Shown one piece after another: positions 6,926 through 43,471 of a stretch of DNA of 64,000 bases. Made by a program: the position numbers and the translations under genes. This DNA comes from Escherichia phage 04086: the sequence record OR842557; one strand, given 5' to 3'. The notes under the pieces were generated by a model. That model searched no databases, was not told the DNA's origin, and saw only the letters and a list, made by a program, of their open reading frames with translations. Position 1 is the first letter of the stretch. Each line of letters starts with the position of its first letter.

Positions 6926-7336
6926 ATGAAAGAAATCGCAGACGAATTTAGCTTTATCAAGTACGTCACCCTAGAACTCCAAGATGACGCCACCATAGCT
7001 CCACTTACGGTACCAAATAAACAAAATGTAATATATGCTATAGCGGTTGATGATATACTAGTCTACGTCGGGAAGACTAAAAATCTTCGTAAGCGCATCA
7101 ACTACTACCGGACCGCTATTAATCGTAAGGACCAAACGTCAGATTCGACTAAGTCCATTCTGATTCATGAAGCATTAATGGCAGGTAAAAAGGTGGAGTT
7201 CTATGCACGGCAGTGCTTTAATCTGTCGATGACTAACGAACTTGGAACTATGTCAGTTGAGACCATGTCTCTTGAAGAGCCAATGTTCATAAAGAAATTT
7301 AATCCACCTTGGAATACCCAACACCGTGCCAAATGA
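6926..7336 (+). CDS. denA: Endonuclease II
   Basis: 136 aa from MKEIADEFSFIKY; strong match to T4 DenA (..VIYAIA..YIGKTKNLRKRINYYRTAINRKD.TSDSTKS..FYARQCFNLSMTNELGTM). Confidence 0.85.
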   Translation: MKEIADEFSFIKYVTLELQDDATIAPLTVPNKQNVIYAIAVDDILVYVGKTKNLRKRINYYRTAINRKDQTSDSTKSILIHEALMAGKKVEFYARQCFNLSMTNELGTMSVETMSLEEPMFIKKFNPPWNTQHRAK

Positions 7337-7983
7337 AGAAACATTACATATACAAAATTACAGTTATGGAAGGCCCATTTAAAGACCACTATTATATAGG
7401 TAAAAGGTCTAACGAGGACCCTGAAAATGACATTTATAGCGGTAGTGGTGTAAAACTACCGTATATAAAAAGAAATTTTAGATTTATTAAGGAAATTTTA
7501 TCATTTCATTCGGATGAACAAGAAGCTTATGATAAAGAAAAGGAATTGGTATGTTATGAGGCCTTAATGGACCCATATTGTTTAAATGTTGTTCTTGGAG
7601 GCAGGGGTCATAAAACGGGTGATAAATTATCGCAATGGTATTTTTATGATGAGCTTTTTGAATTATGGGTAAATAACGGTCTATTAGGATACGGAAGATT
7701 TGGGCGATTGGCTGTCTCATTAGGATATCCTAATGAGCATTACGGAGGCCTTATAGCGGCCTTTGAAAAAAATTCAGGATTAAAAGCAAATTCTAATACC
7801 AAAACCCTAGGAGTTCCTTCTTCCAAGCGTAAGGAACATTGGCTTTACGAAAAGGAGCTTTTCGAACATTGGGTTAAAATGGGCCGATGCGGTCATAGAA
7901 CCTTTAAACGCAAGATGGTAGCTTTAAATTATCCTGATGTATCCTATTATCAAATGGTTGAAAATTTTAAGGTAAAGCAATGA
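7333..7983 (+). CDS. GIY-YIG family homing endonuclease-like protein (Seg-like)
   Basis: N-terminal YIYKIT...YYIGKRS...YSGSG module typical of GIY-YIG; inserted between denA and rnlA; start overlaps denA stop. Confidence 0.7.
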   Translation: MKKHYIYKITVMEGPFKDHYYIGKRSNEDPENDIYSGSGVKLPYIKRNFRFIKEILSFHSDEQEAYDKEKELVCYEALMDPYCLNVVLGGRGHKTGDKLSQWYFYDELFELWVNNGLLGYGRFGRLAVSLGYPNEHYGGLIAAFEKNSGLKANSNTKTLGVPSSKRKEHWLYEKELFEHWVKMGRCGHRTFKRKMVALNYPDVSYYQMVENFKVKQ

Positions 7984-9128
7984 TTGAATTATATGATAAC
8001 TTGATGGCCCTGGTTAAAAACTCGACTAAATCTAAGTTCTTCTTTAAAGACTTTCAGAGTGCTCTAGGAGTCAACTATCGCATCTTTAGTTATAACTACG
8101 CATCATACAGTGATTGGTTGGAAGACGGCGCACTAGAGTGCCGAGGCATTATGTTTGAAATGGACGAGAAAGGTCCTGTACGTATTGCCGCTCGTCCTAT
8201 GCAAAAGTTCTTTAACCTCGACGAAAACCCTATGACTATCGGTCTAGATTTGTCGCCAGAAAATATCGACCTCGTAATGGCTAAGGAAGATGGTTCTCTG
8301 ATTTCTACATTCATGGACCGACAGTATCTTTCTGTTAAATCTAAAGGCTCTATCCATTCATCAATGGTGCATGATTCTTTACGGTTCCTTCGTCTCCCTG
8401 AGAACGAGGCTTTTGCCGCACGTCTAGAAGAAATCACCAAAGCTGGGTATACCTGCAACCTTGAATATGTAGCACCTACCAACCGTATCGTGCTGGCTTA
8501 CCAAGAAACAAACCTCATCCTGTTAAACGTTCGTAATAATGAAACAGGTGAATATATTCCGTATGCTGAATTGTTTAAAGATGGCGCGCTGCGTAAGCAT
8601 TTGGTTGAAAGCTATGACCTCACCGAAGGTGATTTCGTAGAAAACATCCGTAAACAAGAGGGTATTGAAGGTTTCATCTTTGTACTTAAAGATGGTACGT
8701 TCTTTAAACTCAAAACTGCATGGTACAGTGCACTACATCATACCAAAGATTCCATTAACAATAACGAACGTTTGTTTGAAGTTGTAGTGGCTGGTGGTAC
8801 TGACGACCTTCGTGGCCTGTTCAGTACGGATTCGTTTGCTATCGAGAAAATCGATGCCTTTGAACGTATCCATTTAGATTACTTAGAACAATCACTGGCT
8901 TTGTTAGAAGCAGCGTACTCCCAACTCAAAGGCCGCGACCGTAAGGACTACGCTGTTACAGGTCAATTAATCCTTAAGGACTTCCCAGGGTTGTTCTCTA
9001 TTCTTATGCAGGCGTACGTAGGCGGTATTAATTACGATACGGTTGTAGACCAGATTAACTCTGTGTTCTTGAAAAACCACAAAGCCCAAATCCCTGAAAA
9101 ATATTTGAAAGAAATTGTGGTAGAGTAG
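7980..9128 (+). CDS. rnlA: RNA ligase 1
   Basis: 382 aa; collinear with T4 gene 63 product (YRIFSYNYASYSDWL..ALECRGIMFEMD...EDGSL.S...FVAPTNRIVLAYQE..ILLNVR.NETGEY). Confidence 0.9.
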   Translation: MIELYDNLMALVKNSTKSKFFFKDFQSALGVNYRIFSYNYASYSDWLEDGALECRGIMFEMDEKGPVRIAARPMQKFFNLDENPMTIGLDLSPENIDLVMAKEDGSLISTFMDRQYLSVKSKGSIHSSMVHDSLRFLRLPENEAFAARLEEITKAGYTCNLEYVAPTNRIVLAYQETNLILLNVRNNETGEYIPYAELFKDGALRKHLVESYDLTEGDFVENIRKQEGIEGFIFVLKDGTFFKLKTAWYSALHHTKDSINNNERLFEVVVAGGTDDLRGLFSTDSFAIEKIDAFERIHLDYLEQSLALLEAAYSQLKGRDRKDYAVTGQLILKDFPGLFSILMQAYVGGINYDTVVDQINSVFLKNHKAQIPEKYLKEIVVE

Positions 9129-9157
9129 TTTACATCTCCTCATGTTGTGTTAGTATA
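9128..9157 (+). promoter_or_regulatory. T4-type early promoter (GTTTACA, 16-17 nt, TAGTAT) with downstream inverted repeat ctcctcat/atgaggag
   Basis: Motifs read directly upstream of 9187 ORF. Confidence 0.5.
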
Positions 9158-9186
9158 GACTTACCAACTAATGAGGAGAAAACAAA

Positions 9187-9894
9187 ATGAATATGCAAAT
9201 GATTACTAACGAAATGGTTGTTAAGGCTTTTGGTGACTCTACTGACGGTATCCAAGTTTTTAAAGGTTCTCGTGCAGTAGGTTACCTGACCGATCTTCGT
9301 GTTACTTTAGCTAAAAATGCTAAAAAGAAAATCAAGCAAAAAGAATACTCTACCCGTTATGCAGAAGAAAAGCGTGAAGCCATGCCCGAAGCTGTTAACT
9401 CTATGGTTGAGTTTCTCCGAAACAACCTTTCCAAGTACGATGCCGAGGTGTTCATTAATATTAGCCAACCCAATGTTAAAATCTCAGGTATCACTTTCTA
9501 TTTGATTTGTGACCCATTAAGCGACAAGTTTAATCGCCTTGGCATTTCAAGTCCTTACCATACCGCTGAAGAATTGTGTTTTATGTTCGAAACGTACAAA
9601 ATTCAGTGTGAAAATCCTAAAACAGTTCTTATTAATTCCCTGTCACGTGATGACATCATCGAGATTATTACCAAATGTCTAANTAAAATCTCAGGCATCA
9701 CGTTCTATTTGATTTGCGACCCATTAAGCGACAAGTTTAATCGCCTTGGCATTTCAAGTCCTTACCATACCGCTGAAGAATTGTGTTTTATGTTCGAAAC
9801 GTACAAAATTCAGTGTGAAAATCCTAAAACAGTTCTTATTAATTCCCTGTCACGTGATGACATCATCGAGATTATTACCAAATGTCTAAATTAA
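9187..9894 (+). CDS. alc: Alc-like protein (synteny-based); frame carries a duplication at n 9683
   Basis: Position immediately downstream of rnlA as T4 alc; ~165 aa after removing duplicate; sequence identity to Alc not verified. Confidence 0.45.
   Translation: MNMQMITNEMVVKAFGDSTDGIQVFKGSRAVGYLTDLRVTLAKNAKKKIKQKEYSTRYAEEKREAMPEAVNSMVEFLRNNLSKYDAEVFINISQPNVKISGITFYLICDPLSDKFNRLGISSPYHTAEELCFMFETYKIQCENPKTVLINSLSRDDIIEIITKCLXKISGITFYLICDPLSDKFNRLGISSPYHTAEELCFMFETYKIQCENPKTVLINSLSRDDIIEIITKCLN
9477..9891. repeat. Direct duplication (~206 bp x2, n at 9683) inside alc-like ORF
   Basis: Repeated KISGITFYLICDPLSDKFNRLGISSPYHTAEELCFMFETYKIQCENPKTVLINSLSRDDIIEIITKCL. Confidence 0.9.
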
Positions 9895-10235: not shown

Positions 10236-10695
10236 TTAAATTATCTGTAGTAGTATTATCTATTGGCTTGTTAGTTGGATGTGCCCAGGATGTCCCTGTA
10301 GTGCCTAAGCAACAACTGCATCCTTCATGGCCACAACCTATCGCCGAACATAATGTTAAATGGCAGGTTAAGGTAATCGATGGTAAGGCCTGGGTTGGAA
10401 TGCCATTTGAAGATTCCCAAGAACATCGTATTTGGTTGAATGACGTAAAAAGATATGTACAANCATCCCTGTAGTGCCTAAGCAACAACTACATCCTTCG
10501 TGGCCACAACCTATCGCCGAACATAATGTTAAATGGCAGGTTAAGGTAATCGATGGTAAGGCCTGGGTTGGAATGCCATTTGAAGATTCCCAAGAACATC
10601 GTATTTGGTTGAATGACGTAAAAAGATATGTACAAGACCAGAAATCTATGTTATGTTATTATCGTTCCGGCCTAAAAGAGGAGAAGTGCAAATGA
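10232..10695 (+). CDS. Putative o-spanin lipoprotein (Rz1-like; T4 PseT.2 position); contains duplication at n 10463
   Basis: Signal peptide with lipobox LLVGC, Pro-rich mature region; adjacent to the i-spanin candidate. Confidence 0.55.
10290..10640. repeat. Direct duplication (~173 bp x2, n at 10463) inside o-spanin candidate
   Basis: Repeated PVVPKQQLHPSWPQPIAEHNVKWQVKVIDGKAWVGMPFEDSQEHRIWLNDVKRYVQ. Confidence 0.9.
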
Positions 10696-10799
10696 TTGAG
10701 ACATGTGTTTGCGGTTGGGATGCCGTTAGATTTGGCGCTGCATTCTTTTGCTTTGGTATCGTGTTCAGCATGTGTATGCATGGTCTTTTTGGAAAGTAG
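10692..10799 (+). CDS. Small hydrophobic ORF (35 aa)
   Basis: ATG overlapping o-spanin stop (ATGA); Cys/Phe-rich hydrophobic peptide; not in ORF track (below 60 aa). Confidence 0.25.
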   Translation: MIETCVCGWDAVRFGAAFFCFGIVFSMCMHGLFGK

Positions 10800-10828
10800 T
10801 TTACAAACTCTTGGGAGCAGAGTATAAT
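10796..10828 (+). promoter_or_regulatory. T4-type early promoter (GTAGTTTACA, 17 nt, TATAAT) with flanking stem ggagc/gctcc
   Basis: Near-consensus -35/-10 with 17-nt spacer. Confidence 0.65.
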
Positions 10829-10862
10829 GCTCCTACGGATTATAAAAATTGAGGAAATTATT

Positions 10863-12066
<1,204 letters not shown>

Positions 12067-12758: not shown

Positions 12759-12820
12759 GTGTTTACTTTCACCAAGGACGGTGATATGATGACCTTACCG
12801 AAACAAATGAGGAAATCGAA

Positions 12821-13375
12821 ATGAGCCAGTTCTTTGAAGAGCGTAAGTTTTATAAGTTCGTCGGTGAATACACTAAAAACAAATTCACTAATAACGGTGC
12901 TTACGGCCTCAATACAGCTTTTGCCAAGTATGTAGGTATGAACCCGTTTGAAGTTGAAATTGATTACCATAACGGGAAGCCACGTGTAAGCCGAATTCGT
13001 GTATACGATGAGTTGATGTTTGTTGACCTGAGCAAAATCACAGGTAATCCCGACGATGCAACTAGTGTTCTTTTTAATTCAGTAGGCGCCTTTGCCCATG
13101 AATTCGAATACTTTATTGAAGTAGTACGTCCACTGGCTACTACGAGTATTGCTGTAAAGCCAGAACCTAAGCCAGTAAAAGCTACAGCCGATTGGAAAGT
13201 GCTTATTGTTAAAAATGGTAAGATTGAAGTTCATTCTCGCCATAACACAAAGGAACAAGCCGATCGTCAGGCCGAAGAGCTTTTGACCAGCTCGTTCCAA
13301 CAAGTGTGTTATATTGTTAAAGGCGATGTTACCCAAGCTACCACTACCAAACAACTTAAGTTGGAGACCATCTAA
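12821..13375 (+). CDS. Hypothetical protein (184 aa)
   Basis: ORF with RBS gaggaaatcgaaATG. Confidence 0.55.
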   Translation: MSQFFEERKFYKFVGEYTKNKFTNNGAYGLNTAFAKYVGMNPFEVEIDYHNGKPRVSRIRVYDELMFVDLSKITGNPDDATSVLFNSVGAFAHEFEYFIEVVRPLATTSIAVKPEPKPVKATADWKVLIVKNGKIEVHSRHNTKEQADRQAEELLTSSFQQVCYIVKGDVTQATTTKQLKLETI

Positions 13376-13942: not shown

Positions 13943-14714
13943 TGAAAGCAAGCACATACCTTCAGATTGCATATCTGATTTCTCAAGAATCAAAATGTTG
14001 TTCATGGAAAGTGGGTGCGGTTATCGAAAAGAATGGTCGCATTATCTCTACAGGCTATAATGGTTCACCATCCGGTGGTGTTAACTGTTGTGACCACGCT
14101 GTGGAACAAGACTGGACCCGTGTTGTGTATGACCCAGCGCGGATGTCGCATAAATCTGTTCTTCTTAAAGAACACCGCATGGCTCACGCTGCATGGTCAT
14201 CTAAAAATGAAATCCATGCCGAACTGAATGCTATTTTGTTTGCAGCTCGTACCGGAAGTTCTATTGATGGCGCTACGATGTANATAACGGTTCGCCTTCT
14301 GGTGGTGTTAACTGTTGTGACCATGCTGTGGAACAAGACTGGACCCGTGTTGTGTATGACCCAGCGCGGATGTCGCATAAATCTGTTCTTCTTAAAGAAC
14401 ACCGCATGGCTCACGCTGCATGGTCATCTAAAAATGAAATCCATGCCGAACTGAATGCTATTTTGTTTGCAGCTCGTACCGGAAGTTCTATTGATGGCGC
14501 TACGATGTACGTGACGTTATCTCCGTGCGCTGATTGTGCTAAGTCTATTGCGCAGTCCGGAATTAAAACATTGGTTTATGCTGAGCTCTATGACCGAAAT
14601 CCTGAAGGTTGGGACGATATCCTCCGTGAATCAGGCATCGAAGTTATCCAGTATAATCGTACAGGTCTCCGTTCTTTGAACTGGGAATCAATTCAAAACT
14701 ATTGCGGTGAATAA
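13942..14714 (+). CDS. cd: dCMP deaminase; frame broken by duplication at n 14283
   Basis: MKASTYLQIAYLISQESKCCSWKVGAVIEKNGRIISTGYNGSP.GGVNCCD ... HAELNAILFAAR.GSSI.GATMYVTLSPC.DCAK.IAQSGIK matches T4 Cd (zinc-binding HAE and PCxxC motifs). Confidence 0.85.
14060..14520. repeat. Direct duplication (~225 bp x2, n at 14283) inside cd; copies are slightly divergent
   Basis: Repeated GGVNCCDHAVEQDWTRVVYDPARMSHKSVLLKEHRMAHAAWSSKNEIHAELNAILFAARTGSSIDGATM. Confidence 0.9.
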
Positions 14715-15636: not shown

Positions 15637-15960
15637 ATGGAACTTCCTATTAAAGCGGTCGGAGAATATGTTATTCTCGTTTCCGAACCAAAACAAGCTG
15701 GTGATGAAGAAACTACTGCATCTGGTATCGTTATTGGCAAACTTCATCAAGGTGAAATCCCTGAACTTTGTGAAATTTATTCTGTAGGACCTGATGTCCC
15801 TGAAGATTTTTGTGAAGTAGGCGATTTGACTCCACTTCCTGTTGGTAAGATTGCTAACGTGCCTCATCCGTTGGTTGCATTGGGTATTAAACAACCTAAA
15901 GAAATTAAACAAAAATTCGTTACCTGTCACTATAAAGCTATTCCTTGCCTTTATAAGTGA
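15637..15960 (+). CDS. 31: Co-chaperonin (GroES-like) Gp31
   Basis: 107 aa; strong match to T4 gp31 ([21 protein letters not shown]...[18 protein letters not shown]...[32 protein letters not shown]). Confidence 0.85.
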
Positions 15961-16106: not shown

Positions 16107-16355
16107 ATGAACAAACAATTGAATCACGCTCTTGAACTGCAACGCAACGCTTGGAACAACGGTCACGAAAACTACGGCGCATCTATTGATGTTGAAGCCG
16201 AAGCACTGGAAATCCTGCGTTATTTCAAACATCTGAATCCTGCTCAGGCTACTCTGGCTGCTGAACTGGAAGCTAAAGATGAACTGAAATTTGCTAAGCC
16301 TTTGGCTTCAGCAGCTCGTAAAGCAGTACGTCATTTTATTATTACCCTGAAGTAA
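16107..16355 (+). CDS. rIII: Lysis inhibition accessory protein rIII
   Basis: 82 aa; near-identical to recalled T4 RIII (MNKQLNHALELQRNAWNNGHENYGASIDVEAEALEILRYFKHLNPAQATLAAELE.KDELKFAKPLASAAR.AVRHF..TLK). Confidence 0.85.
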   Translation: MNKQLNHALELQRNAWNNGHENYGASIDVEAEALEILRYFKHLNPAQATLAAELEAKDELKFAKPLASAARKAVRHFIITLK

Positions 16356-16617: not shown

Positions 16618-16779
16618 ATGGCTAAGAAAGAAGTTAAAGTAGTTGACGGTACCTCTAAACGCGCTGGTTACAAGCGTGCGTCCAACAAGCGTATCAATCA
16701 GGTAGTTGATAAGCTTCAAGCTCGTGCTCGTGCAGTATTGCGTGCAGATGCTGCTTGCTTTGGTAAGCCTCAGGCATAA
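16618..16779 (+). CDS. Small basic protein (53 aa), not in ORF track
   Basis: ATG at 16618 (MAKKEVKVVDGTSKRAGYKRASNKRINQVVDKLQARARAVLRADAACFGKPQA*), followed 6 nt later by a strong terminator hairpin. Confidence 0.45.
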   Translation: MAKKEVKVVDGTSKRAGYKRASNKRINQVVDKLQARARAVLRADAACFGKPQA

Positions 16780-16784
16780 GTTAT

Positions 16785-16809
16785 GGGACTCTTCGGAGTC
16801 CCATTTTTG
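16785..16809 (+). terminator. Rho-independent terminator (GGGACUC-UUCG-GAGUCCC + AUUUUUG)
   Basis: 7-bp GC-rich stem, UUCG tetraloop, U tract. Confidence 0.75.
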
Positions 16810-16830
16810 TTTCTAAATCTTTAAAAAAGG

Positions 16831-16859
16831 GTGTACATCTCCGGTAGGCATGATACTAT
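16831..16859 (+). promoter_or_regulatory. Early promoter (GTGTACA, 16 nt, TACTAT) within promoter/stem-loop cassette
   Basis: Inverted repeat tgtacat...atgtacc brackets the promoter; followed by aaactggagaataaaATG module. Confidence 0.5.
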
Positions 16860-16900
16860 AGACATGTACCAAATAATACTAAAACAAACTGGAGAATAAA

Positions 16901-17233
16901 ATGAAAACTGTAAATCTGAATGCATCTGTTAAAGCTAAATGTTTCAACGGTGAATATCAAGAAACCATGTGGGTCCTGACTGCAGTTGAAGGTGATATCA
17001 TCGAAGTTGAAACAACTGAAGGTATGGGTACTGATTTTACATTCACCATCGAGCTTCACAACTTCTTTACAGGTTGGATTTATGAACTGAAAACTGTAAT
17101 TACTGGTCGTATTGAAGAAAACAAAAATGGTGAATTCTATTATGTTAATGCCCGTACACGTGCTGAACGTCTGATTGCTCAGATGAAAAAAGTTGGTAAA
17201 CTTGATATGAAAAATTGGAATGTTGTGAAATAA
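16901..17233 (+). CDS. Hypothetical protein (110 aa)
   Basis: ORF with conserved initiation module aaactggagaataaaATG. Confidence 0.55.
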   Translation: MKTVNLNASVKAKCFNGEYQETMWVLTAVEGDIIEVETTEGMGTDFTFTIELHNFFTGWIYELKTVITGRIEENKNGEFYYVNARTRAERLIAQMKKVGKLDMKNWNVVK

Positions 17234-17237
17234 ATGT

Positions 17238-17266
17238 TTTACTTTGGTACAGGTTGTGTTATTATA
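17238..17266 (+). promoter_or_regulatory. Early promoter (TTTACT, 17 nt, ATTATA) embedded in 12-bp inverted repeat tttggtacaggt/acctgtaccaaa
   Basis: Perfect 12-bp inverted repeat flanks the -10; followed by aaactggagaataaaATG module. Confidence 0.55.
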
Positions 17267-17306
17267 GACCTGTACCAAATAATACGAAAACAAACTGGAG
17301 AATAAA

Positions 17307-17672
17307 ATGAACTACATCAACTTCGAACGTAAATATGTTTCTAACGGTATCGCTGGTTCTTCTGAAGTTATTTGCCTGTGGAAACACAACAACGGCGCGG
17401 TGTGCGAAATCGAACAGTGCATGACTCCTAACTACGTTTATATGCGCTTTGAAAATGGTATTACGGTTTCAATCACATTGGAAGGTTCTACTTTTAAAAT
17501 CGCTTTAGATGATGATTTCCGTCAACGTGATTTAGGTACCCATCCTTGCTGGAACGGTGTTAATCGTAAGCTTCTGGTTAAAACTTGGATTCGTCACATC
17601 CTGAGCAACCGAGCTAAACCTGAACACCTGGAAGCAATCTTTGATGTAGTTCTGAACGAATTCGACATCTAA
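17307..17672 (+). CDS. Hypothetical protein (121 aa)
   Basis: ORF with conserved initiation module aaactggagaataaaATG. Confidence 0.55.
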   Translation: MNYINFERKYVSNGIAGSSEVICLWKHNNGAVCEIEQCMTPNYVYMRFENGITVSITLEGSTFKIALDDDFRQRDLGTHPCWNGVNRKLLVKTWIRHILSNRAKPEHLEAIFDVVLNEFDI

Positions 17673-17683
17673 TCTTAAAAATG

Positions 17684-17702
17684 GAGGCTTCGGCCTCCTT
17701 TG
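17684..17702 (+). terminator. Stem-loop GGAGGC-UUCG-GCCUCC followed by UUUGAGG (weak terminator / RNA structure)
   Basis: 6-bp GC stem with UUCG loop right after 17307..17672 stop. Confidence 0.5.
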
Positions 17703-18196: not shown

Positions 18197-18409
18197 ATGG
18201 TTAAGAAATTGATTCAGAAATTATTAGGTACGGAAATGGTCGAAGTGACTTATCGTGTAACTGATTTATCTCCTGTGCATCCGCAAGATGAACCATATAC
18301 TAAAACAATTAAAATGCTGAAATCTGATGGCGGATTATCTATTGAAGACCGTCTACCTGGTTATGGTCATTGGGCTGATGTCGAAATTATAAGTGTCAAA
18401 GATATTTAA
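18197..18409 (+). CDS. Hypothetical 70-aa protein, paralog A
   Basis: MVKKLIQKLLGTEMVEVTYRVTDLSP...; RBS aagcGAGGataat. Confidence 0.5.
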   Translation: MVKKLIQKLLGTEMVEVTYRVTDLSPVHPQDEPYTKTIKMLKSDGGLSIEDRLPGYGHWADVEIISVKDI

Positions 18410-18418
18410 GGAATCTTC

Positions 18419-18631
18419 ATGATTAAGAAATTATTTAAAAAGCTGTTTGGCTTGGAACTGGTTGAAGTGACTTATCGTGTTATTGATTTATCACCGCCAT
18501 ATGCTTGCGATGAAGATGCTATTAAAACTGTTGTTATGCGAAAAACATATCGCGGGCAGTCAATTAAAGAAAGATTGCCAGACCATGGCATGTGGTATGC
18601 AACCAAGATTATCGGTGTCAAAGATGTCTGA
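18419..18631 (+). CDS. Hypothetical 70-aa protein, paralog B
   Basis: MIKKLFKKLFGLELVEVTYRVIDLSP...; same length and clearly homologous to 18197..18409. Confidence 0.5.
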   Translation: MIKKLFKKLFGLELVEVTYRVIDLSPPYACDEDAIKTVVMRKTYRGQSIKERLPDHGMWYATKIIGVKDV

Positions 18632-21765: not shown

Positions 21766-23661
21766 ATGTCCGAACAATTGAATGAGGTATTTGACGGCGC
21801 TATAGATTTATCAGCTGTCAATTTAAACCCTAAACTTAAAGTACCACAGATTTGGAATATAAAGGCTGAAGGTAATGAGAACCTTGTTGCACGCATGGTT
21901 TCATATACTTCTGAAGGTGATACAATCCGCCAAGTTAAACCGGGTGACAAATACGTTCATATTATTTTAATGAGCCTATCATCTAAAGGGGCCCCGGCAG
22001 AACTCAAAGGTGGTTTAGGTAGTAACCCCATTTCCGCTATTCGTTCTATATTTGATACGGTTTATGAACAAGTTAAAAAGCTCCGTATGGATGCCGTTAT
22101 GTTCCGTTTTCCTACTAAGAAAATGAAAGGTCAGGAAAAAGCTGTACAACGAGTTCTAGCCAAATTAATAGCTACTAGAGCAGGTGGGCAATTCAAGGTC
22201 CTTGATGCCTTGTATCAATATACAGGCAAACATTCATATGTTTTTATCTATCGTAAAAATAAAAATATAGAATCAATAAACGGTATTCCTAATATTAATC
22301 CGGAATTGTATACTAAAGTCGAATCTGAAGTCGGTGATGTGTATGTTTCAAAGAAAACAGGCGAAGATGTTACCAAATTAGAAGCTATAGCTAAGTCTAT
22401 AGACGAAATAGAAAAATCACGTTCTGATAAAATGGTTATAACCAAGACTAAGGTTTCTAAACGGGCCGCTATAAATGCGTTATATTCTACCGCCGAGCCT
22501 ACAGGATTGAGTAAATTTTCGGCAGAGCACAAAAAAGCTTATGCAGATTATTCTGCTACTAGTTCCGTTCATTCTTCTGAAGATTCTAAAGAAAGCCAAA
22601 TAGCTTTAGCCAGTAATAAAATATTAAAAGACGCCTCTAAAGAAATGGCAGAATATTTGGATTATATTTTTAACGGTGTTAATCCATCATTTGAAGTAGA
22701 CGAGCGCAAACTTAAACTAATTGCTGATATAAAGTTTGCTTTAGAGGCATCAGATTCTTTAGATAAATCTAATAGTGTCATAGAGGCTTTAAAATCAGGT
22801 AAATCTCATGTAGACATTCTTAGACTAGTCGCTGCGGCCCTTTTAGATGATTCAGTTAAAGGTACTTGGGCTAGAGAATCTAAAATCAAGGAAGTAATAA
22901 AATCCTTAGTAGCAGTTTATACAAAATCTATCCAACCGTTGTTTAAGATATCTGATAATCCTAATTTATCCAAACCTCAAGAAGAGGCAGTCAAAAAGTA
23001 TACTCGTGGCGGCTACAACCATATAAACAACTTTTTGCTAGGTAAAACAGATACCACCGATGAAATGATAAAAATGATTGGTGAGTTGGATTCTACATTT
23101 GAAAATGGTACAAAACTTCCTAAAGGAACCATAGTGTATCGTTCTCAGATAATGCCTACCGAAATGGCTTTGAATTCTATAAAACATAAGGTGATGTATC
23201 TTCCTATTTTTGCATCAACTTCATTGGCTCCTAATATTTTCGGTGAAATGGGTCATGCTCAATCCAACTTAGACCCTGAAGCTCTTTCTAGCGATATAGA
23301 TAGTAATCTTGAAGACACCATTAAAAGTGCGACCGGAAGTGCTAGAGATACCATTAAGCTAGGGCTAATTATTAAAGGTGCTGATAAAATTAAGGTTATT
23401 GTGCCCGGTGACTTGGCTAATTGGTCTACAGAAACCGAAGTAATTCTTCCTCGTGGGGTTATGCTTAAGATTAATAAAGTATACGGTGCTTCCAAGGGAC
23501 CTATGGGTTCAATTGGTAAATATGTTTTAGTGGAATGTGAAGTTGTAGCTACAGAGCAAATCACAGAGGAAAATTCATATAGCACCGGATTCTCGTTTGG
23601 AAATTATGATAGAATTATGTATGAAGATTCTATGGAAAAATTAGCAAATTTATTTAAATAG
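21766..23661 (+). CDS. Alt-like ADP-ribosyltransferase paralog 1 (631 aa)
   Basis: Conserved Alt N-terminus (NLNPKLKVPQIW...MDAVMFRFPTKKMKGQ) and C-terminal ART motifs (YTRGGYNHINNFLLG; VYRSQ; FASTSL; ETEVILPRG). Confidence 0.8.
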   Translation: MSEQLNEVFDGAIDLSAVNLNPKLKVPQIWNIKAEGNENLVARMVSYTSEGDTIRQVKPGDKYVHIILMSLSSKGAPAELKGGLGSNPISAIRSIFDTVYEQVKKLRMDAVMFRFPTKKMKGQEKAVQRVLAKLIATRAGGQFKVLDALYQYTGKHSYVFIYRKNKNIESINGIPNINPELYTKVESEVGDVYVSKKTGEDVTKLEAIAKSIDEIEKSRSDKMVITKTKVSKRAAINALYSTAEPTGLSKFSAEHKKAYADYSATSSVHSSEDSKESQIALASNKILKDASKEMAEYLDYIFNGVNPSFEVDERKLKLIADIKFALEASDSLDKSNSVIEALKSGKSHVDILRLVAAALLDDSVKGTWARESKIKEVIKSLVAVYTKSIQPLFKISDNPNLSKPQEEAVKKYTRGGYNHINNFLLGKTDTTDEMIKMIGELDSTFENGTKLPKGTIVYRSQIMPTEMALNSIKHKVMYLPIFASTSLAPNIFGEMGHAQSNLDPEALSSDIDSNLEDTIKSATGSARDTIKLGLIIKGADKIKVIVPGDLANWSTETEVILPRGVMLKINKVYGASKGPMGSIGKYVLVECEVVATEQITEENSYSTGFSFGNYDRIMYEDSMEKLANLFK

Positions 23662-23669
23662 GATAGATT

Positions 23670-25751
23670 ATGACCCAATTAAATGAAGTGTTCGAGTCCG
23701 AAGGTACACTGCCTGTTGTGAACTTGAACCCAAAACTTAAAGTACCTCAGATTTGGAAGATTGGAGACGCGGAGTCTCAGTTAGTAGCACGTATGGTATC
23801 CTACGCTTCTGAAGGTGATGCTATTAAACAAGTTAAAATGGGTGATAAATATGCCCACGTTATCCTTATGAGCCTTTCAGCTAAAGGTTCGCCTGCCGAA
23901 CTTAAAGGCGGCTTAGGCCCTACTCCTGTAGATGCGATTAATACTATTTTTGATGTAGTTTATGACCAAGTTAAAAAGCTTCGTATGGATGCCGTGATGT
24001 TCCGTTTTCCTACCAAGAAAATGAAAGGTCAAGGCCCTATCGTTCAACGTATTATCCAACGTTTGGTAGCACAGAAAACCGGTGGACGTTTTAAAGTGGT
24101 TCCGGCTATGTACCAATTTACCGGTAAACATACTTACATCCTGGTAGTCCGTAAACAAGCTGATATCGAAGATATCAAAGGTATGCCTGGAATTAATGCT
24201 GAATTGTATACTAAGGTAGATTCTGATGTCGGTGAAGTTTATATTTCCAAAAAAGAAGGTGTGCAGGTTACTAAAGAAACTGCTATTGCTGGCAGTATTG
24301 CTAAGGTTGAAGAACGTCGCACTGATAAAATGGTTATAACCAAGACTAAGATTTCTAGGCGCGCCATTGCAGCAAGCCAATCATTGGAATCTTATCGTAA
24401 TGAAAGTGAATTGTTTAAGAAATATGAAGCTACTGCAGCGGATTTTAATAAACCGGCAACAGTTCCATTAATCCCTGAGGCTCAGGAAATGGTTACTAAT
24501 AACAATTCTCCTGCGGCTAAAAATAAGGTTGCTAATATAGTGGCTGAAGGCACTGCTGAAGAATTGCATTACGATTATAAAATGTTTCCTCTTCACGGTA
24601 TAGGTGAAATCCAAGAGAAAATTAAAGAGAAAATTCTTACAGCAATAAAAAACGAACCTTTGACATCTGTTAAAGCTCTAGAAAAATATGCCTCTGCTAT
24701 TAATACCGTTTTCGAAGAATACAAAGGTGAATGGCTGGCTATCCATAACAGAACTCGTAAAGGCCAACCTGATGACCTTTGGAACGAATTGACAGAGGCC
24801 AAGTGGAAAGCAGCCAAGACTAAGTTCATTAAAAAACGTGTATATAGTTTTGCTGGTGTGGGTGGCGGTATTATGGTTGATATTACTATTGCTCGTGAGG
24901 GCTCTAAATATACCCCATCACAAAAGCGCGGAATCAGAGAATATTGTGGTTCAGGATATACAGACATAAATAATCTTCTTTTAGGACGTTATAATCCTCA
25001 GAACTATGAGGTTATGAGCGAAAAAGATATCGAATCTGCAGTTAATAATTTGGATTCTGCTTTTGAAAACGGCGACCGTATACCAGAAGGCATCACAGTT
25101 TATCGCGCACAGAGTATGACTGCTCCTATATACGAAGCACTAGTTAAAAATAAAGTGTTCTATTTCAGAAATTTTGTATCTACTTCTTTAACTCCTATCA
25201 TTTTCGGACGTTTTGGTGTTACCCACGCAGGTATTGGTCTTTTAGAACCTGAAGTTCGCAATGAATTGACAGTCGATAAAAATGAAGAAGGAATAACTAT
25301 TAACCCTAATGAAATAAGAGCGTATAAAGAAAACCCTGATTACGTTAAAGTTCAAATAGGATGGGCAATTGATGGAGCCCATAAAGTTAATGTCGTATAT
25401 CCAGGAAATCTCGGAATAGCAACTGAAGCCGAAGTTATTCTGCCGCGTGGATTAATGGTCAAAGTTAATAAAATAACAGATGCTTCTAATAATGATGGAA
25501 CAACATCTAGTAATACAAAACTCATCCAAGCTGAAGTTATGACAACAGATGAGCTTCAAGAATCTGTGGTATATGATGGTGACGTACTAATGGAAACCGG
25601 CGAGCTGGTCGTGTATCAAGATGATTTCGATACTTCCGAAAGCCCTGTATCTTTTGATTCATTTGTTAAATCTACACGGTTTGATGTACTGCCTCTTTTG
25701 GCTTCATGCATAGACCTCTATGACATCCCAGAAAAATTCATCCAAGGGTAA
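23670..25751 (+). CDS. alt: ADP-ribosyltransferase Alt (closest to T4 Alt; 693 aa)
   Basis: Collinear with recalled T4 Alt incl. YTPSQKRGIREYCGSGYTDINNLLLGRYNP, VYRAQ, FVSTSL, EAEVILPRGLMVKVNKITDASNNDGT, C-terminal ASCIDL..P.KF.QG. Confidence 0.85.
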   Translation: MTQLNEVFESEGTLPVVNLNPKLKVPQIWKIGDAESQLVARMVSYASEGDAIKQVKMGDKYAHVILMSLSAKGSPAELKGGLGPTPVDAINTIFDVVYDQVKKLRMDAVMFRFPTKKMKGQGPIVQRIIQRLVAQKTGGRFKVVPAMYQFTGKHTYILVVRKQADIEDIKGMPGINAELYTKVDSDVGEVYISKKEGVQVTKETAIAGSIAKVEERRTDKMVITKTKISRRAIAASQSLESYRNESELFKKYEATAADFNKPATVPLIPEAQEMVTNNNSPAAKNKVANIVAEGTAEELHYDYKMFPLHGIGEIQEKIKEKILTAIKNEPLTSVKALEKYASAINTVFEEYKGEWLAIHNRTRKGQPDDLWNELTEAKWKAAKTKFIKKRVYSFAGVGGGIMVDITIAREGSKYTPSQKRGIREYCGSGYTDINNLLLGRYNPQNYEVMSEKDIESAVNNLDSAFENGDRIPEGITVYRAQSMTAPIYEALVKNKVFYFRNFVSTSLTPIIFGRFGVTHAGIGLLEPEVRNELTVDKNEEGITINPNEIRAYKENPDYVKVQIGWAIDGAHKVNVVYPGNLGIATEAEVILPRGLMVKVNKITDASNNDGTTSSNTKLIQAEVMTTDELQESVVYDGDVLMETGELVVYQDDFDTSESPVSFDSFVKSTRFDVLPLLASCIDLYDIPEKFIQG

Positions 25752-25754
25752 ATA

Positions 25755-28317
25755 ATGGAAAATTTAAACGAGGTTTTTGATAGTGATTCCGCTAAAAACT
25801 ATCCAGTAACAAATCTTAAACCGGGTTCCGGTATTCCACAGATTTTCTCTATCCAAGCACCAGGTAACGATAACCTGGTTGCTCGCATGGTATCTTATGC
25901 GTCTGAAGGCGACGCTATTAAGATGGTTAAGGCGGGCGATAAGTACGTCCATGTTATCTTAATGAGTTTATCTGCTAAAGGCGCTCCGGCAGAACTCAAG
26001 GGCGGTTTGGGTACCGATCCACTCGGTACACTGAACACCATTTTCGATACCATATATGAACAAATAAACAAACTTAAAATGGACGCGGTTTTATTCCGTT
26101 TCCCTACTAAGAAAATGAAAGGTAAGGGCCCTACCGTTCAGCGCGTATTAGCTCGTTTGGCTATGGCCCGTACCGGTGGTAAGTTTAAAGTTGTTGACGA
26201 CATGTTCCAATTCAGCGGAAAACATACCTACGTTCTTTTAGTACGTCGTGGTGCTAATATTGAAGATATCAAGGGTATGCCTGAAATTAATGCCGATCTT
26301 TATACTAAAGTTGAGTCTAAAGTTGNAGGTCCTACCGTTCAGCGCGTATTAGCTCGCTTGGCTATGGCTCGTACCGGTGGTAAGTTTAAAGTTGTTGACG
26401 ACATGTTCCAATTCAGCGGAAAACATACCTACGTTCTTTTAGTACGTCGTGGTGCTAATATTGAAGATATCAAGGGTATGCCTGAAATTAATGCCGATCT
26501 TTATACTAAAGTTGAGTCTAAAGTTGGCGAAGTGTATGTTTCTAAGAAAACCGGCCAGGCNTAAGGGCCCTACCGTTCAGCGCGTATTAGCTCGTTTGGC
26601 TATGGCCCGTACCGGTGGTAAGTTTAAAGTTGTTGACGACATGTTCCAATTCAGCGGAAAACATACCTACGTTCTTTTAGTACGTCGTGGTGCTAATATT
26701 GAAGATATCAAGGGTATGCCTGAAATTAATGCCGATCTTTATACTAAAGTTGAGTCTAAAGTTGGCGAAGTGTATGTTTCTAAGAAAACCGGCCAGGCCG
26801 TAAGTAAGGTCGAAGCAGTAGCGGCATCTATTGCACAAGTTGAAGAGAAACGTACCGATAAGGCTGTCATTACCCGTACTAAGATTTCCCGTCGTATGGC
26901 AGCAGCCGCGCAGTATTCTACTGCTGAGCCTGAAACTTTGTCCCCTAAAGAATTGCAGGTTTATAACGAGTTTGAAGCTTCTGTACCGGTTCACACGGCT
27001 GAAGGCCCTGAGAATGAAGGTATTGAACAGATTAGTCAGAACTTTAAAAAAGGTGCTATTACTAAAATGCGCCAGGCTTCTCAGTTTAAATCTAAGAGCG
27101 AGGACCTTGCCAACTTTAGATACACTATTGCCCTCACGCACGCTTTAATGACTGATAGTAAATTTAAACTAAATTATGCTAATAGAGATAAACAAGGGTT
27201 TGAAATTTACTCTAATAATATGGCATTTTTTAATACAGAAGTCGATAGACTTTTAAGTGGTCTTTCGCAAATCAATACAACCAATAGTCTGGATATTATT
27301 AAGAAAATTGTTAATAACTTGAGTGCTCGTTTTAAGGGTTCCCCTTCAGAAAAGGCCTCTCGAATTGCTTTCGCTATGGAAGCCGTTTATAAACTGGTTA
27401 ACGATTCTATTAGTGATGCATATGCTTATTCAGGCGAGCTCATTAAACCTAAGGACCTAACCAAAGACGAAAGCAATGCTATTATTGAATATTGCGCAGC
27501 TGAATATGCTCCTATGAACTTATTCCTTTTAGGTAAACCTGAATCCGAAAACAATACAACGGCTATTAAATTGATTAAGGATTTAGACTCAGCATTTACT
27601 AAGGGTATTAAACTTCCTAAGGGTACTATTTTGTATCGTGGTCAGGATTTGCCATACAAAATTCTGCGCCATAATATCGATAACAAAACATTTTACTTTA
27701 AGAACTTTGTGTCAGCCTCATTAAAGCCTAACATCTTTGGTGAATTTGGTAAAAATTATATGGCCCTCGACAACCAAGCCGTTTTTGTTGGCGGCGAAGG
27801 TTCTTTATCCTCCGCTGATGAGTTGTTTAAATTGGCTAGCGGTAGTTCATCTGATGTGGGTGAAGTCGATGACGAAGAGGTAGAATGGGAAGAAGACGAG
27901 TTCGGTAATCCAATTGCGCCCGAAGGTCCTGCGGATAGAATTGCTGAAATTGGTATGGTTATTCGAGGTGCTGAAGCAGTTAAAGTTATCGCTCCTGGTG
28001 ACCTTACAGAATATGCCGAAGAAGCAGAAATTATCCTTCCGCGTGGGTTATTGTTGAAGGTTGATAAAGTAGCGGCTTTTGCTATGAATGATAGAGTATC
28101 TCACAAATACCTTATGGAAGCTACCGTAACACCTCCTTCAGAGCTCAGTGAATCTGTTTACGATGGTGACCATTTGATGGAAACTGGTGAAGTTCGCCTG
28201 ATGGACGGCTTTAAACAGTTCTTGGTTAGTGAATCCATTTCTGAAAGTAACGAGGCTATGGAAATCCTTGCTGCATCTTTGGATATCTCTTCTTTATCAA
28301 ATAAATTCAAAATGTAG
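25755..28317 (+). CDS. Alt-like ADP-ribosyltransferase paralog 3; frame broken by two inserted duplicate copies (n at 26326 and 26561)
   Basis: Alt-like N-terminus plus C-terminal motifs YRGQ, FVSASL, EEAEIILPRG and an acidic insert (VDDEEVEWEEDEF); ~700 aa after removing duplicates. Confidence 0.75.
26118..26795. repeat. Three direct copies of a ~233-bp alt-3 segment separated by n (26326, 26561)
   Basis: Repeated GPTVQRVLARLAMARTGGKFKVVDDMFQFSGKHTYVLLVRRGANIEDIKGMPEINADLYTKVESKV. Confidence 0.9.
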
Positions 28318-28346
28318 TTTACATTACCACAAGGATGTGGTACTAT
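28318..28346 (+). promoter_or_regulatory. T4-type early promoter (GTAGTTTACA, 17 nt, TACTAT) followed by catgaggag RBS module
   Basis: Near-consensus early promoter overlapping end of alt-3; stem ccacaagga/tgtgg in spacer. Confidence 0.65.
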
Positions 28347-28374
28347 TACCTTACACAAACATGAGGAGAACATT

Positions 28375-28665
28375 ATGAAATCTACATTCCGTTTTAATGG
28401 TCAAGAACTGGTAGTTGAAAACGTTATCCCTGCTTCTGAAGAGTTTGACAGTGCAGTGGGTAATGAATTACGTCGAGTTTTCGGTGAAGACAAACAGTTT
28501 GATATCCGACCTGTTGAGAATTTTTCTTATCCAGAACAAACCGAAAACATTTTTAACGGTGTAGTGACAGGACAACTCGAATCCGAAGCTCCTATTTCGG
28601 TTACGGTGTTTGTTAAAAAGCAACCACTAATGACCACAGCAGGTTTCATTTCGTTCCGTAAATAA
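28375..28665 (+). CDS. Hypothetical protein (96 aa)
   Basis: ORF with GAGGAG RBS; bracketed by early promoter and terminator. Confidence 0.5.
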   Translation: MKSTFRFNGQELVVENVIPASEEFDSAVGNELRRVFGEDKQFDIRPVENFSYPEQTENIFNGVVTGQLESEAPISVTVFVKKQPLMTTAGFISFRK

Positions 28666-33173: not shown

Positions 33174-34487
33174 TTTTAACCTTCGGTGGTTCTTCAATCT
33201 TAATAGGCTTACCATTAGTAAACATATAAAGGTTTGTAATTGATGTATTGTTACTCACTTCATGAATAACTTCGTCTACATAAAAATCGTATTGGAATTG
33301 GTTTTTAGGGTCGTAGAAATTAATCTTATCACCTGGAGTTAGTTCAAAGTTACCGTATACCTTACAATGCGCGTAGCCGTCGTATTGGGCCATTGTAACT
33401 AATCTATCAGCTTCTTCATATCCATTTCGATAGGTATAATCGGAATATCCGCCAGAGCGAGAAACCAATATACTGTTTTGCCCATCGCCAAAAGTAATTC
33501 GTGTGGCGTTTTTGTCTAAGAAAGAGTGGGCGTATATAGTAGCGTTTTCATATGGCTTTCTGGAATGCTGGTTGGCTTTAGTTAACCATTCAAAATCAAA
33601 TGCGATAGGAGTATCCATATCTTGAACGTATTGGCCTATTAAACGCGGCTCACCTACCACAAAATTAATTGGCTCTTGATTAACCATAAATTCGTAGTCC
33701 ATAATAGAAATACCATCTATATCTTCCCAGACAAATACAAATTTATCAGATTCAACAGCCATACCTACTTCTCGTACAAATTCCATATAACGGTCCATTG
33801 AATCACACCAAGGAACATTAGGAACGTAAACGTTTATCCCGTTCAATGGAGGTGCAAGAAGTGGGCGGTCTTGATAAATAACACCAATCATTTCGGTTAA
33901 TGTTTCTTGAACACTTGGGAAGAACATACGTCCGAATTTAAGATTTTCTAAAAAGTGGATTGGGGCGAGTTGTATTGTTATGATATTATCACCCTTCGAA
34001 TCCACTCCTACAGCAAAGTGTTTACTTCCATAAATTCTTGATTGGGTACGTTCAGAGTTAGCATTCTTAACAGAAATTTGAATAATCTGCTCACCATCCA
34101 TTTTAGTATGAAGGTTCTTTGCATCATAAAACTGAAGCAACCCTTCATTACTACCGTAAAGNGTATTGTTATGATATTATCACCCTTCGAATCCACTCCT
34201 ACAGCAAAGTGCTTACTTCCATAAATTCTTGATTGGGTACGCTCAGAGTTGGCGTTCTTAACGGAAACTTGAATAATCTGTTCGCCGTCCATTTTAGTAT
34301 GAAGGTTCTTTGCATCATAAAACTGGAGCAATCCTTCATTACTACCGTAAAGTCCATCTCGCATTGTTAGAGTAGTAAATGTCGCGCCTAGTTCAACAAA
34401 ACGATGCTCTAACCAGGCGTCATAATCTTCGTAAAGGCGTATACTGATATTAGGAAAGCCTTCACGTTGCATAGTTTTTGAACTCAT
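33127..34487 (-). CDS. 27: Baseplate hub subunit Gp27; frame broken by duplication at n 34162
   Basis: N-terminus [48 protein letters not shown] and downstream [17 protein letters not shown] match T4 gp27. Confidence 0.85.
33975..34350. repeat. Direct duplication (~187 bp x2, n at 34162) inside gene 27
   Basis: Repeated [55 protein letters not shown]. Confidence 0.9.
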
Positions 34488-38866: not shown

Positions 38867-38894
38867 AAGTAATTCTCAGTTATAAATATAGTTA

Positions 38895-38902
38895 TATTTA
38901 TA
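38895..38902 (-). promoter_or_regulatory. Late promoter TATAAATA (minus strand) upstream of uvsW
   Basis: tatttata on + strand about 29 nt upstream of uvsW ATG. Confidence 0.5.
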
Positions 38903-39100
38903 CACCAACAAGAGACTAATTATGGATACTCAATATATTGAAGAGCTTCGTGCACTCGAAGATAAAAAAGAAGCTAAAGCTAAGTTAATCGAATACGGCG
39001 AACAGTTTGGTTTAAAACTTAAGAANAGATTCATCGCATTCAATACGGACATGACTAAAATTATCAAAATGTACTTGAATTTGCATAAGTAATTCTCAGT

Positions 39101-43464: not shown

Positions 43465-43471
43465 ACACACA

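Follow-up and report, generated by a model that had tools for sequence, protein, structure and literature searches.

Early promoter cassettes of a Dhakavirus resemble the promoter-early stem-loops of T4-like phages and contain predicted RegB/S1 sites

Small early genes of Escherichia phage 04086 (sequence record OR842557) are preceded by recurrent intergenic cassettes in which an early promoter, a stem-loop and a strong Shine-Dalgarno (SD) sequence lead directly into the start codon, and it is these cassettes that we have analysed in one stretch of 64,000 nt of the genome (the window). The phage is a Dhakavirus (a JS98/IME08-like T-even phage), with 94–98% nucleotide identity to the Dhakavirus genomes matched (JS98, IME08, QL01, WG01, IME281, LQ5 and ABTNLS3), and the early transcription direction in the window is the + strand. 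We consider it probable that the cassettes are the ordinary early transcription and translation start units of the Dhakavirus group, that their shared stretches also serve recombination, and that they take part in gene shuffling of the type described for the promoter-early stem-loop (PeSL) cassettes of T4-like phages (Arbiol et al. 2010, PMC2839356; Comeau et al. 2014, PMC4122927). Two points are added: the repeated initiation module coincides with the consensus for the RegB/S1 endoribonuclease, and a subclass of the cassettes carries a predicted anti-SD sequence within the promoter spacer. The cassettes of the window are as follows.

70–142, + strand: frd.1 cassette; -35 GTATACA at 70–76, -10 TACAAT at 94–99, RegB/SD site GGAGAATAAAA at 130–140, ATG at 140–142.
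9128–9189, + strand: alc cassette; -35 TTTACA at 9129–9134, -10 TAGTAT at 9151–9156, SD ATGAGGAGA at 9171–9179, ATG at 9187–9189.
10799–10865, + strand: 10800 cassette; -35 TTTACA at 10800–10805, -10 TATAAT at 10823–10828, ATG at 10863–10865.
12761–12823, + strand: 12762 cassette; -35 TTTACT at 12762–12767, -10 TATGAT at 12785–12790, ATG at 12821–12823.
16820–16903, + strand: 30.8 cassette; A-tract at 16823–16829, -35 TGTACA at 16832–16837, -10 TACTAT at 16854–16859, leader with RegB/SD site GGAGAATAAAA at 16891–16901, ATG at 16901–16903.
17237–17309, + strand: 30.7 cassette; -35 TTTACT at 17238–17243, -10 TATTAT at 17260–17265, RegB/SD site GGAGAATAAAA at 17297–17307, ATG at 17307–17309.
28317–28377, + strand: alt.-3 cassette; -35 TTTACA at 28318–28323, -10 TACTAT at 28341–28346, SD ATGAGGAGA at 28361–28369, ATG at 28375–28377.
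43461–43522, + strand: cassette of the insert between gp24 and gp23; -35 TTTACA at 43462–43467, -10 TACTAT at 43485–43490, SD ATGAGGAGA at 43505–43513, ATG at 43520–43522.

As read from the sequence, these cassettes each consist of an A-rich tract, a predicted sigma-70 early promoter of T-even type (GTTTAC(A/T), a 16–17 bp spacer and a TAYWAT-like -10), a leader of 35–45 nt and a strong SD by the ATG. The A-rich tract reads tttctaaatctttaaaaaa before the 30.8 promoter (P30.8; 16810–16829), aaataaattcaaaat before 28318 and ataattttatttataaaa before 43462; it is weaker before the 30.7 promoter (P30.7), where the -35 directly follows the upstream stop codon. GGAG or GAGGAG stands 6–8 nt before the ATG in all cassettes. 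The promoter consensus published for the T4/PST PeSLs is TTTACW N17 TAYWAT (PMC4122927), which the 28318 and 43462 promoters fit exactly (TTTACA N17 TACTAT); the others are TTTACA N17 TATAAT (10800), TATACA N17 TACAAT (frd.1), TTTACT N16 TATTAT (P30.7), TGTACA N16 TACTAT (P30.8) and, with one deviation from the T-even consensus, TTTACA N16 TAGTAT (alc). The pattern GTTTACW-N17-TANTAT has 7 matches in the window against 1.35 expected. Upstream of 30.8 and 30.7 in T4, promoters of the same type are predicted at the orthologous positions, and the palindrome GGTACAGG/CCTGTACC discussed below is present there too; genome-wide data on T4 transcription starts were sought in the literature without anything usable turning up, and the T4 promoters of these two genes are likewise read from the DNA alone.

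The sequence-only reading that preceded this work had distinguished two families of module. The first, a near-identical initiation module present three times, is borne out: the 18-mer AAACTGGAGAATAAAATG occurs exactly at 125–142, 16886–16903 and 17292–17309, and a fourth site with 3 mismatches lies at 21518. At up to 3 mismatches only 0.13 matches are expected, and none of 100 shuffles reached four. The second family is also real, with coordinates that were slightly off: TTTACA-N16-TAGTAT lies at 9129–9156 and TTTACA-N17-TACTAT at 28318–28346 and 43462–43490, the third -35 beginning at 43462 and not at 43472. Downstream of each is ATGAGGAGA (at 9171, 28361 and 43505), a 9-mer with 4 matches in the window against 0.43 expected, and at the first of these sites the text is aATGAGGAG, not the cATGAGGAG that had been given. 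Judging from a survey of 20 non-redundant early cassettes of IME08, both families are variations on a single early promoter/leader consensus of Dhakavirus, ...GATACTATAGACCTATCAA...

At the 30.8 and 30.7 cassettes the similarity extends well beyond the module, forming a 55-nt direct repeat (repeat family D16) whose two copies are 93% identical, lie 406 nt apart and bracket gene 30.8.

16851–16905, + strand: left copy of the 55-nt repeat, with -10, leader, RegB/SD and ATG.
17257–17311, + strand: right copy of the 55-nt repeat.

In IMG/VR the 38-nt long leader is confined to 6 Dhakavirus-type contigs, where it occupies the 30.8 and 30.7 positions, and on this ground we have rejected the idea of a dispersed mobile element. 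An Rfam search of 15.5–18.5 kb matched no family at E <= 1. Could all these resemblances be accidents of AT-rich intergenic DNA? One of the inverted repeats claimed earlier (16832–16870, see below) does indeed stand at chance level, but three exact 18-mers against 0.13 matches expected, the 55-nt repeat and conservation in dozens of relatives make this a negligible prospect.

The module has a second identity, which the sequence-only reading had missed. In T4 the optimal RegB/S1 target is GGAGAAUAAAA, generalised as GG*AGRAYARAA (Durand et al. 2006, PMC1702504; Uzan and Miller 2010, PMC3014915): an invariant GGA, a G at position 4 and then a 7-nt A-rich flank, RAYARAA (PMC1702504). The sequence GGAGAATAAAA of the frd.1, 30.8 and 30.7 cassettes (130–140, 16891–16901 and 17297–17307) fits at 11 of 11 positions and is, letter for letter, the published optimal site; the three module copies are the only matches to GGAGRAYARAA in the 64-kb window. 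The initiation module is consequently a combined ribosome-binding site and predicted RegB cleavage site, and there is a functional reason, over and above recombination, for its being so strongly conserved. Before 30.8 the motif does not vary in T4 or any of the relatives examined, and before 30.7 the one exception is VR5 (L017), with the leader CCAAAGGATAATAAAATG. Cassettes of the ATGAGGAG type fit the consensus less well, that of alc having A at position 7 and C at position 9. Sequence identity, together with the annotation of regB in Dhakavirus IME08 (~94% identical to the window), suggests that these particular sites may be cleaved, and in promoter-initiated transcripts the predicted probability that GGAG is unpaired, a figure that is purely computational, is 0.68 for frd.1, 0.64 for 30.8 and 0.40 for 30.7. 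The same 11 nt would then both start translation and mark the immediate-early mRNA for a RegB cut (GG^AG), and so for rapid shut-off. As a separate observation, two perfect RegB/S1 sites follow rIII (16107–16355) at a distance of some 550 nt; according to the title of a 2022 paper (PMC9409239), T4 RIII binds S1 and inhibits RegB activation.

Comparison of the syntenic regions of relatives, which the sequence-only reading had proposed, reveals that the cassettes themselves are kept in dozens of relatives and that ORF (open reading frame) content differs in three ways: by a swap of 30.8, by a deletion in phage JM10 and by a block upstream of frd.1. In IME08, IME341 and PSD2002 the 30.8 allele is replaced by one whose protein is 39% identical, the swap running exactly between two cassettes; identity between the window and IME08 stops after ...GGAGAATAAAATGAAAA and resumes at TTTACTTTGGTACAGG, the -35 of P30.7. 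One promoter version occurs with both 30.8 alleles, and at least four promoter versions are found upstream of 30.8. Escherichia phage JM10 (PP400777.1; L046 530–660) is without 30.8 and has 30.9 with its terminator, one hybrid P30.8/P30.7 cassette and then 30.7. This cassette combines a 30.8-type promoter half with a 30.7-type leader, the crossover falling in the shared -10/TATAGAC zone, and the deletion is what recombination between the two repeats would be expected to leave behind, as in an excision from cassette to cassette. The window, LQ5 and IME341 have an extra ORF (ORF-X) with a second promoter cassette upstream of frd.1, and homology to the other five of the seven relatives begins at GGAGAATAAAATG (position 130), where this polymorphic block ends.

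Insertions and exchanged leaders are seen too. Escherichia phage C6 (MW679410.1; L047 560–960) has a GC-rich ORF of 118 aa (phrog_17531) inserted after the 30.9 terminator and before the P30.8 cassette, and this ORF brings its own UUCG-loop terminator. An identical 32-nt leader, ACCTTACACAAACATGAGGAGAACATTATGAA, precedes alc in VR5 (L029) and alt.-3 in the window (28346–28377), implying that leader modules have moved between non-homologous genes; similarly, the 30.8 leader of locus L014 resembles the frd.1 leader of the window. The 10800 cassette shows an ORF-precise insertion/deletion (indel) relative to 5 relatives, with its endpoint at the ATG. All in all, the cassettes are located in the small-ORF clusters frd.x, pseT/cd and 30.x, and three polymorphisms have their junctions inside them. 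Near-identical shared sequence (13–16 nt invariant across genera, and 55 nt at 30.8/30.7) would provide the homology patches for phage recombination, and the replacements, deletions and insertions with junctions inside cassettes in natural isolates would then represent modular shuffling of the PeSL kind. In the same neighbourhood, two small ORFs between frd.1 and frd (391–747, phrog_8592, and a second up to 963) form a block (385–950) that is missing in 5 of 7 relatives, with no promoter cassette at either junction.

Alternatively, the repeats might be nothing but a functional consensus that selection keeps gene by gene, with no exchange and no part in shuffling. After all, the 13-nt GGAGAATAAAATG equals a functional consensus (PMC1702504) and shows no change between T4 and Dhakavirus before 30.8, nor before 30.7 bar VR5; many IME08 cassettes share GATACTATAGACCTATCAA though they are not adjacent; and breakpoints are no more enriched in cassettes than at other gene boundaries. 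However, the two copies of the 55-nt repeat keep their 93% identity across leader positions that vary freely in other lineages, the T4 30.8 and 30.7 leaders being dissimilar. Nor would one expect the clean hybrid of 30.8 promoter and 30.7 leader in JM10 just where 30.8 is missing, one promoter version paired with both 30.8 alleles, or identical 32-nt leaders before unrelated genes in different phages. Such incongruences among the cassettes argue against gene-by-gene selection as the whole explanation, which we regard as unlikely.

With respect to the genes that the cassettes flank, the sequence-only reading had taken them for recently acquired cargo, and in this it was mistaken for five of them. 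The ORFs at 140, 9187, 16901, 17307 and 28375 are frd.1, alc, 30.8, 30.7 and alt.-3, which by their sequences and syntenic positions are old conserved T4 genes. For 30.8 and 30.7 this is evident from blastn, which finds T4 orthologues 77–85% identical at the same position; frd.1, alc and alt.-3 were identified by Pfam matches and by the “similar to T4” annotations of relatives. The notion of cargo does hold for the ORF at 43520, the only such case, which is variable among relatives together with a neighbouring GIY-YIG-like gene, but this variability is accounted for by a homing endonuclease without any cassette mechanism. In general, the flanked ORFs should be annotated not as “cargo” but as core T-even accessory genes. 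The genes and ORFs concerned, with those of the 30.x locus named from annotated relatives and T4 itself, are these.

140–379, + strand: frd.1, 79 aa, DUF5417 (Pfam PF17438, E = 1e-34); the name is carried by the annotations of QL01, IME08 and IME281.
From 9187, + strand: alc, by synteny with annotated relatives.
15637–15960: gene 31.
16107–16355: rIII.
16618–16779: gene 30.9.
16901–17233, + strand: gene 30.8, 110 aa, T4-type allele; Pfam Phage_30_8 (PF06019), E = 6e-48; 77% nucleotide identity to T4 30.8 at the same position (blastn).
17307–17672, + strand: gene 30.7, 121 aa; Pfam Phage_T4_Gp30_7 (PF06919), E = 2e-51; 85% nucleotide identity to T4 at the same position (blastn); 839 phage records contain 30.7.
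Downstream of 30.7: gene 30.6 onward.
28375–28665, + strand: alt.-3, DUF5498, annotated as alt.-3 in relatives.
43520–43786: ORF of 88 aa (phrog_6003) between head genes 24 and 23.
43790–44461: GIY-YIG homing-endonuclease-like (seg-like) ORF between head genes 24 and 23, downstream of the 88-aa ORF.

The last two, with their early cassette (43462–44461), lie on the opposite strand between gp24 and gp23; only 36 phage records cover at least 80% of this segment, and IME281 is without the endonuclease part.

With respect to the stem-loops of the cassettes, it had been claimed that two of the promoters are embedded in inverted repeats, and for one of them this is fully justified: the 30.7 cassette has a perfect 12-bp inverted repeat, TTTGGTACAGGT/ACCTGTACCAAA (17243–17254/17268–17279), with the -10 in the loop. 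The other, the tgtacat...atgtacc repeat at 16832–16870, amounts only to the 6-bp GTACAT/ATGTAC with a loop of ~24 nt and is missing from the predicted fold; with a whole-cassette fold at z = -0.95 it is at chance level and we have rejected it. As RNA, the P30.7 hairpin has a minimum free energy of -20.2 kcal/mol (z = -3.6, and -4.3 for the T4 orthologue). Its core, GGTACAGG/CCTGTACC, is unchanged in T4, in the other relatives read and at 13 of 14 IMG/VR loci; at locus L013 one C-to-T change gives a G-U pair, and in Klebsiella phage F48 the hairpin has three compensatory pairs as well as G-U wobbles. The Karamvirus Entb_43 has an 11-bp anti-SD hairpin at 30.7 instead. A perfect palindrome of 12 bp over the -10, its core conserved from T4 to Dhakavirus, might also be thought a DNA operator at which a dimeric phage or host regulator shuts the early promoter. 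However, the arms differ completely between cassettes of the same genome, leaving no common half-site, and the arms of F48 have changed in a compensatory manner with G-U (in DNA, G-T) tolerated, which fits RNA pairing and not protein recognition. We have rejected the operator as very improbable.

Folds beyond those of shuffled sequences occur in 4 of the 8 window cassettes (z from -2.1 to -4.5) and in 11 of the 20 IME08 cassettes (z <= -2). In frd.1 the hairpin AUGGGGCUAU/AUGGUCCCAU (82–91/98–107; fold z = -2.1) overlaps the -10, and in the 10800 cassette the -10 lies in the loop of GGGAGCA/TGCTCCT (10813–10819/10828–10834; z = -2.6). The 12762 cassette has a CACC..GGTG hairpin inside the spacer (z = -1.1, not significant alone) and the alt.-3 cassette a spacer hairpin CCACA..TGTGG; none of the folds of the 12762, 28318 and 43462 cassettes is individually significant. 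The alc orthologues always have a promoter-associated hairpin across lineages, in varying position. About 12 of the 20 IME08 cassettes have the 5′ arm in the -35/-10 spacer. As to the 3′ arm, the 30.7, frd.1 and 10800 cassettes have it within the -10/+1 region, and those of alc and 30.8 within the SD itself. Because a 5′ arm in the spacer is outside the cassette's own transcript, such a hairpin would form only in read-through RNA.

In the alc and 30.8 cassettes the pairing involves the SD. The alc spacer contains an anti-SD, TCTCCTCAT (9135–9143), that is the exact reverse complement of ATGAGGAGA, both being present in the cassette (fold -21.9 kcal/mol, z = -4.5; spacer/SD duplex z = -4.6). 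In the 30.8 cassette TCTCCGGT (16838–16845, promoter spacer) is complementary to ACTGGAGA (16888–16895, SD region), with a duplex of -12.6 kcal/mol and z = -3.6 to -3.9 against shuffled spacers. The pairing covaries across three unrelated 30.8 leaders (TCTCCGGT/ACTGGAGA, TCCTTTG/CAAAGGA and TCCAGTG/CACTGGA). Over 18 cassettes, matched spacer/SD pairs differ from mismatched ones (permutation p = 0.002), and significant complementarity is found in 5 of the 18 (each p <= 0.016); we have rejected anti-SD pairing as a general rule, 13 of 18 cassettes having no significant pairing, and regard it as the property of a subclass. The predicted probability that the SD is unpaired falls from 0.70 in the own transcript to 0.00 in the read-through transcript for alc, and from 0.64 to 0.05 for 30.8.

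In their proposal the PeSL authors took the stem-loops for terminators or attenuators of upstream transcripts, a role that involves no translational effect. There is something to be said for this: the terminator function of one RB49/phi1 PeSL stem-loop was tested with a lacZ reporter, and the authors call PeSL stem-loops effective terminators (PMC2839356); a canonical terminator (16783–16804 plus a T-run) lies just upstream of P30.8, at a distance of 28 nt, in the position of the T4/PST PeSL stem-loops (PMC4122927); and in some alc orthologues (L031) a U-rich run comes after the hairpin. Yet no U-tract follows the hairpins at 17243–17279, 9135–9179 and 10813–10834, which would make them poor intrinsic terminators and a simple terminator role doubtful, and the SD itself forms the 3′ arm in 5 cassettes, with a spacer that covaries with it, something a pure terminator does not predict. 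Termination as the sole function therefore strikes us as rather doubtful. The stem-loops that flank 30.8 and 30.7 on the outside are the following.

16783–16810, + strand: intrinsic terminator after 30.9 from the terminator scan, a GGGACUC-UUCG-GAGUCCC stem-loop (16783–16804) and then a T-run; fold -15.2 kcal/mol, z = -3.2; kept in T4 and all relatives examined.
17683–17698, + strand: GGAGGC-UUCG-GCCUCC hairpin after 30.7, a palindromic stem for which the scan reported a minus-strand terminator-like site (17698–17683); analogous hairpins lie 3′ of 30.7 in F48 and Entb_43.

Both hairpins (16783–16804 and 17683–17698) have a UUCG tetraloop and GGAG inside the stem, and the structured GGAG of such a stem class was described as RegB-resistant by Durand et al. 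(PMC1702504).

In the interpretation that we prefer, the hairpins of read-through RNA would insulate each unit, either attenuating the upstream RNA or capping its 3′ end, and the anti-SD hairpins would keep read-through copies untranslated. A further step, which we put forward tentatively and do not count as the likelier outcome, is that the stem-loops sort transcripts by their start point rather than mainly terminate them. In the anti-SD class, to which alc, 30.8, the Karamvirus 30.7 and a number of IME08 genes belong, read-through RNA would be translationally silent and RegB-resistant, structured GGAG being left uncut, and RNA begun at the gene's own promoter would be open first to translation and afterwards, at those same 11 nt, to destruction by RegB. 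If so, each small early gene would have an autonomous on/off pulse whatever its neighbours, and this would explain why promoter, hairpin and ribosome-binding site are kept as one portable unit.

Several points weigh against our interpretation of shuffled early cassettes with insulating hairpins. The sequence-only reading had spoken of recombination hotspots, but among the indel and replacement endpoints of the first 29 kb compared with 7 relatives, cassettes hold 4 of ~26, the same share as they have of the gene boundaries (7 of ~45); against this gene-boundary null we have rejected a breakpoint hotspot, although cassettes are ~8-fold enriched over random positions. Several indels are ORF-precise at ATG/stop overlaps with only 4–5 nt of microhomology, and some others are homing-endonuclease insertions or the result of recombination between paralogues. 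With respect to the hairpins, the P30.7 covariation has essentially one distant sequence (F48) behind it. The 30.7 SD is predicted to be unpaired with probability 0.40 in its own transcript against 0.50 in the read-through transcript, the hairpin being off the SD, so that a single function does not explain all hairpins. The promoter-embedded hairpins have no U-tract after them and would be poor intrinsic terminators, the text from 17280 onward, for example, being AAAUAAUAC. Furthermore, regB is assigned to this genome by extrapolation from IME08, its region being outside the 64-kb window, and the putative promoter activity, RegB cleavage and hairpin function in this phage are all derived from sequence.

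Some other features of the window deserve mention. Near-perfect tandem duplications of 170–240 nt, each with N or NNN exactly at the junction, span 1954–2630, 4610–4945, 9477–9890, 10293–10635, 14057–14510, 26127–26798, 32178–32574, 33972–34352, 38808–39245 and 51883–52554 (N junctions at 2180, 2404, 4777, 9683, 10463, 14283, 26326, 26561, 32375–7, 34162, 39026, 52069 and 52349). They lie within essential genes (td, nrdA, alc, alt and others), and ABTNLS3 is without every one of them in the compared region (to ~34 kb; 39026, 52069 and 52349 are outside the comparison). We have rejected these repeats as biology, since they look like contig ends joined without merging of their overlaps, an assembly artefact. 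Genuine paralogy is found at 21800–28317, where three diverged Alt-like ADP-ribosyltransferase genes stand in tandem (families D1/D2, ~70% identical); relatives have two or three copies, and homology breaks at 22130–23650. Two paralogous 30.4-type ORFs of 70 aa (18197–18409 and 18419–18631) are 78% identical over their first 77 nt, and 5 of 7 relatives do not have 18404–18607, which fits a deletion or a duplication through recombination between the paralogues. Finally, a homing-endonuclease-like ORF (7324–7968, phrog_314) lies between denA and rnlA and is present, among 7 relatives, only in IME281.

The comparison with PeSLs, which the sequence-only reading had already drawn, stands: the cassettes have the AT-rich tract, the T-even early promoter (TTTACW N16-17 TAYWAT) of the same consensus as in T4/PST, a stem-loop upstream of, within or overlapping the -10, the SD and the ATG; they lie between small early ORFs in clusters that may count as plastic regions, and some deletion, replacement and insertion junctions of close relatives fall inside them. 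By these sequence-level defining features they are a known kind of element, here in a new genus. There are differences nonetheless. PeSLs have been detailed for RB49/phi1, PST/T4 and nt-1/KVP40, and for JS98-type phages there is no more than a brief reference to “PeSL-like sequences” near g43; instead of G(n)/C(n) the stems here have AT-rich, diverse sequences; the genes flanked are conserved T-even genes and not ORFans; and promoter or terminator activity and mini-circles arising when neighbouring cassettes recombine belong to the described PeSLs, whereas the present cassettes are predictions. In the text of the 2010 and 2014 papers that was covered (PMC2839356, PMC4122927), neither RegB nor SD sequestration is mentioned.

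Other known systems share single aspects with these cassettes. Like most known RegB/S1 sites of T4 early mRNAs, GGAGAATAAAA, which equals the strict T4 consensus GGAGAAUAAAA, is an intergenic early-gene SD, with the difference that cleavage is predicted here. The T4 genes e, soc, 49 and I-TevI (PMC3014915) have a promoter inside a hairpin, the long upstream RNA hiding the SD and the internal-promoter RNA, which lacks the 5′ arm, being translated; there, however, late promoters delay expression, whereas here an early promoter is concerned and the predicted 5′ arm lies in the -35/-10 spacer. Lambdoid morons and integron gene cassettes are also small genes with their own expression signals and variable content at defined intergenic points, but the cassettes described here have no integrase or attC-type site, exchange would proceed via homology in the shared regulatory sequence, and most of the genes flanked are resident rather than accessory.

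For the JS98 group, then, these results would extend the PeSL picture to the Dhakaviruses. The 30.9–30.8–30.7 locus offers a clean natural example, with an allele swap, a precise deletion from cassette to cassette (JM10) and an ORF insertion (C6). The coincidence of module and consensus site also links the PeSL and RegB literatures, which do not cite each other, and the anti-SD sequences in promoter spacers suggest an insulating role for the stem-loops that is open to test.

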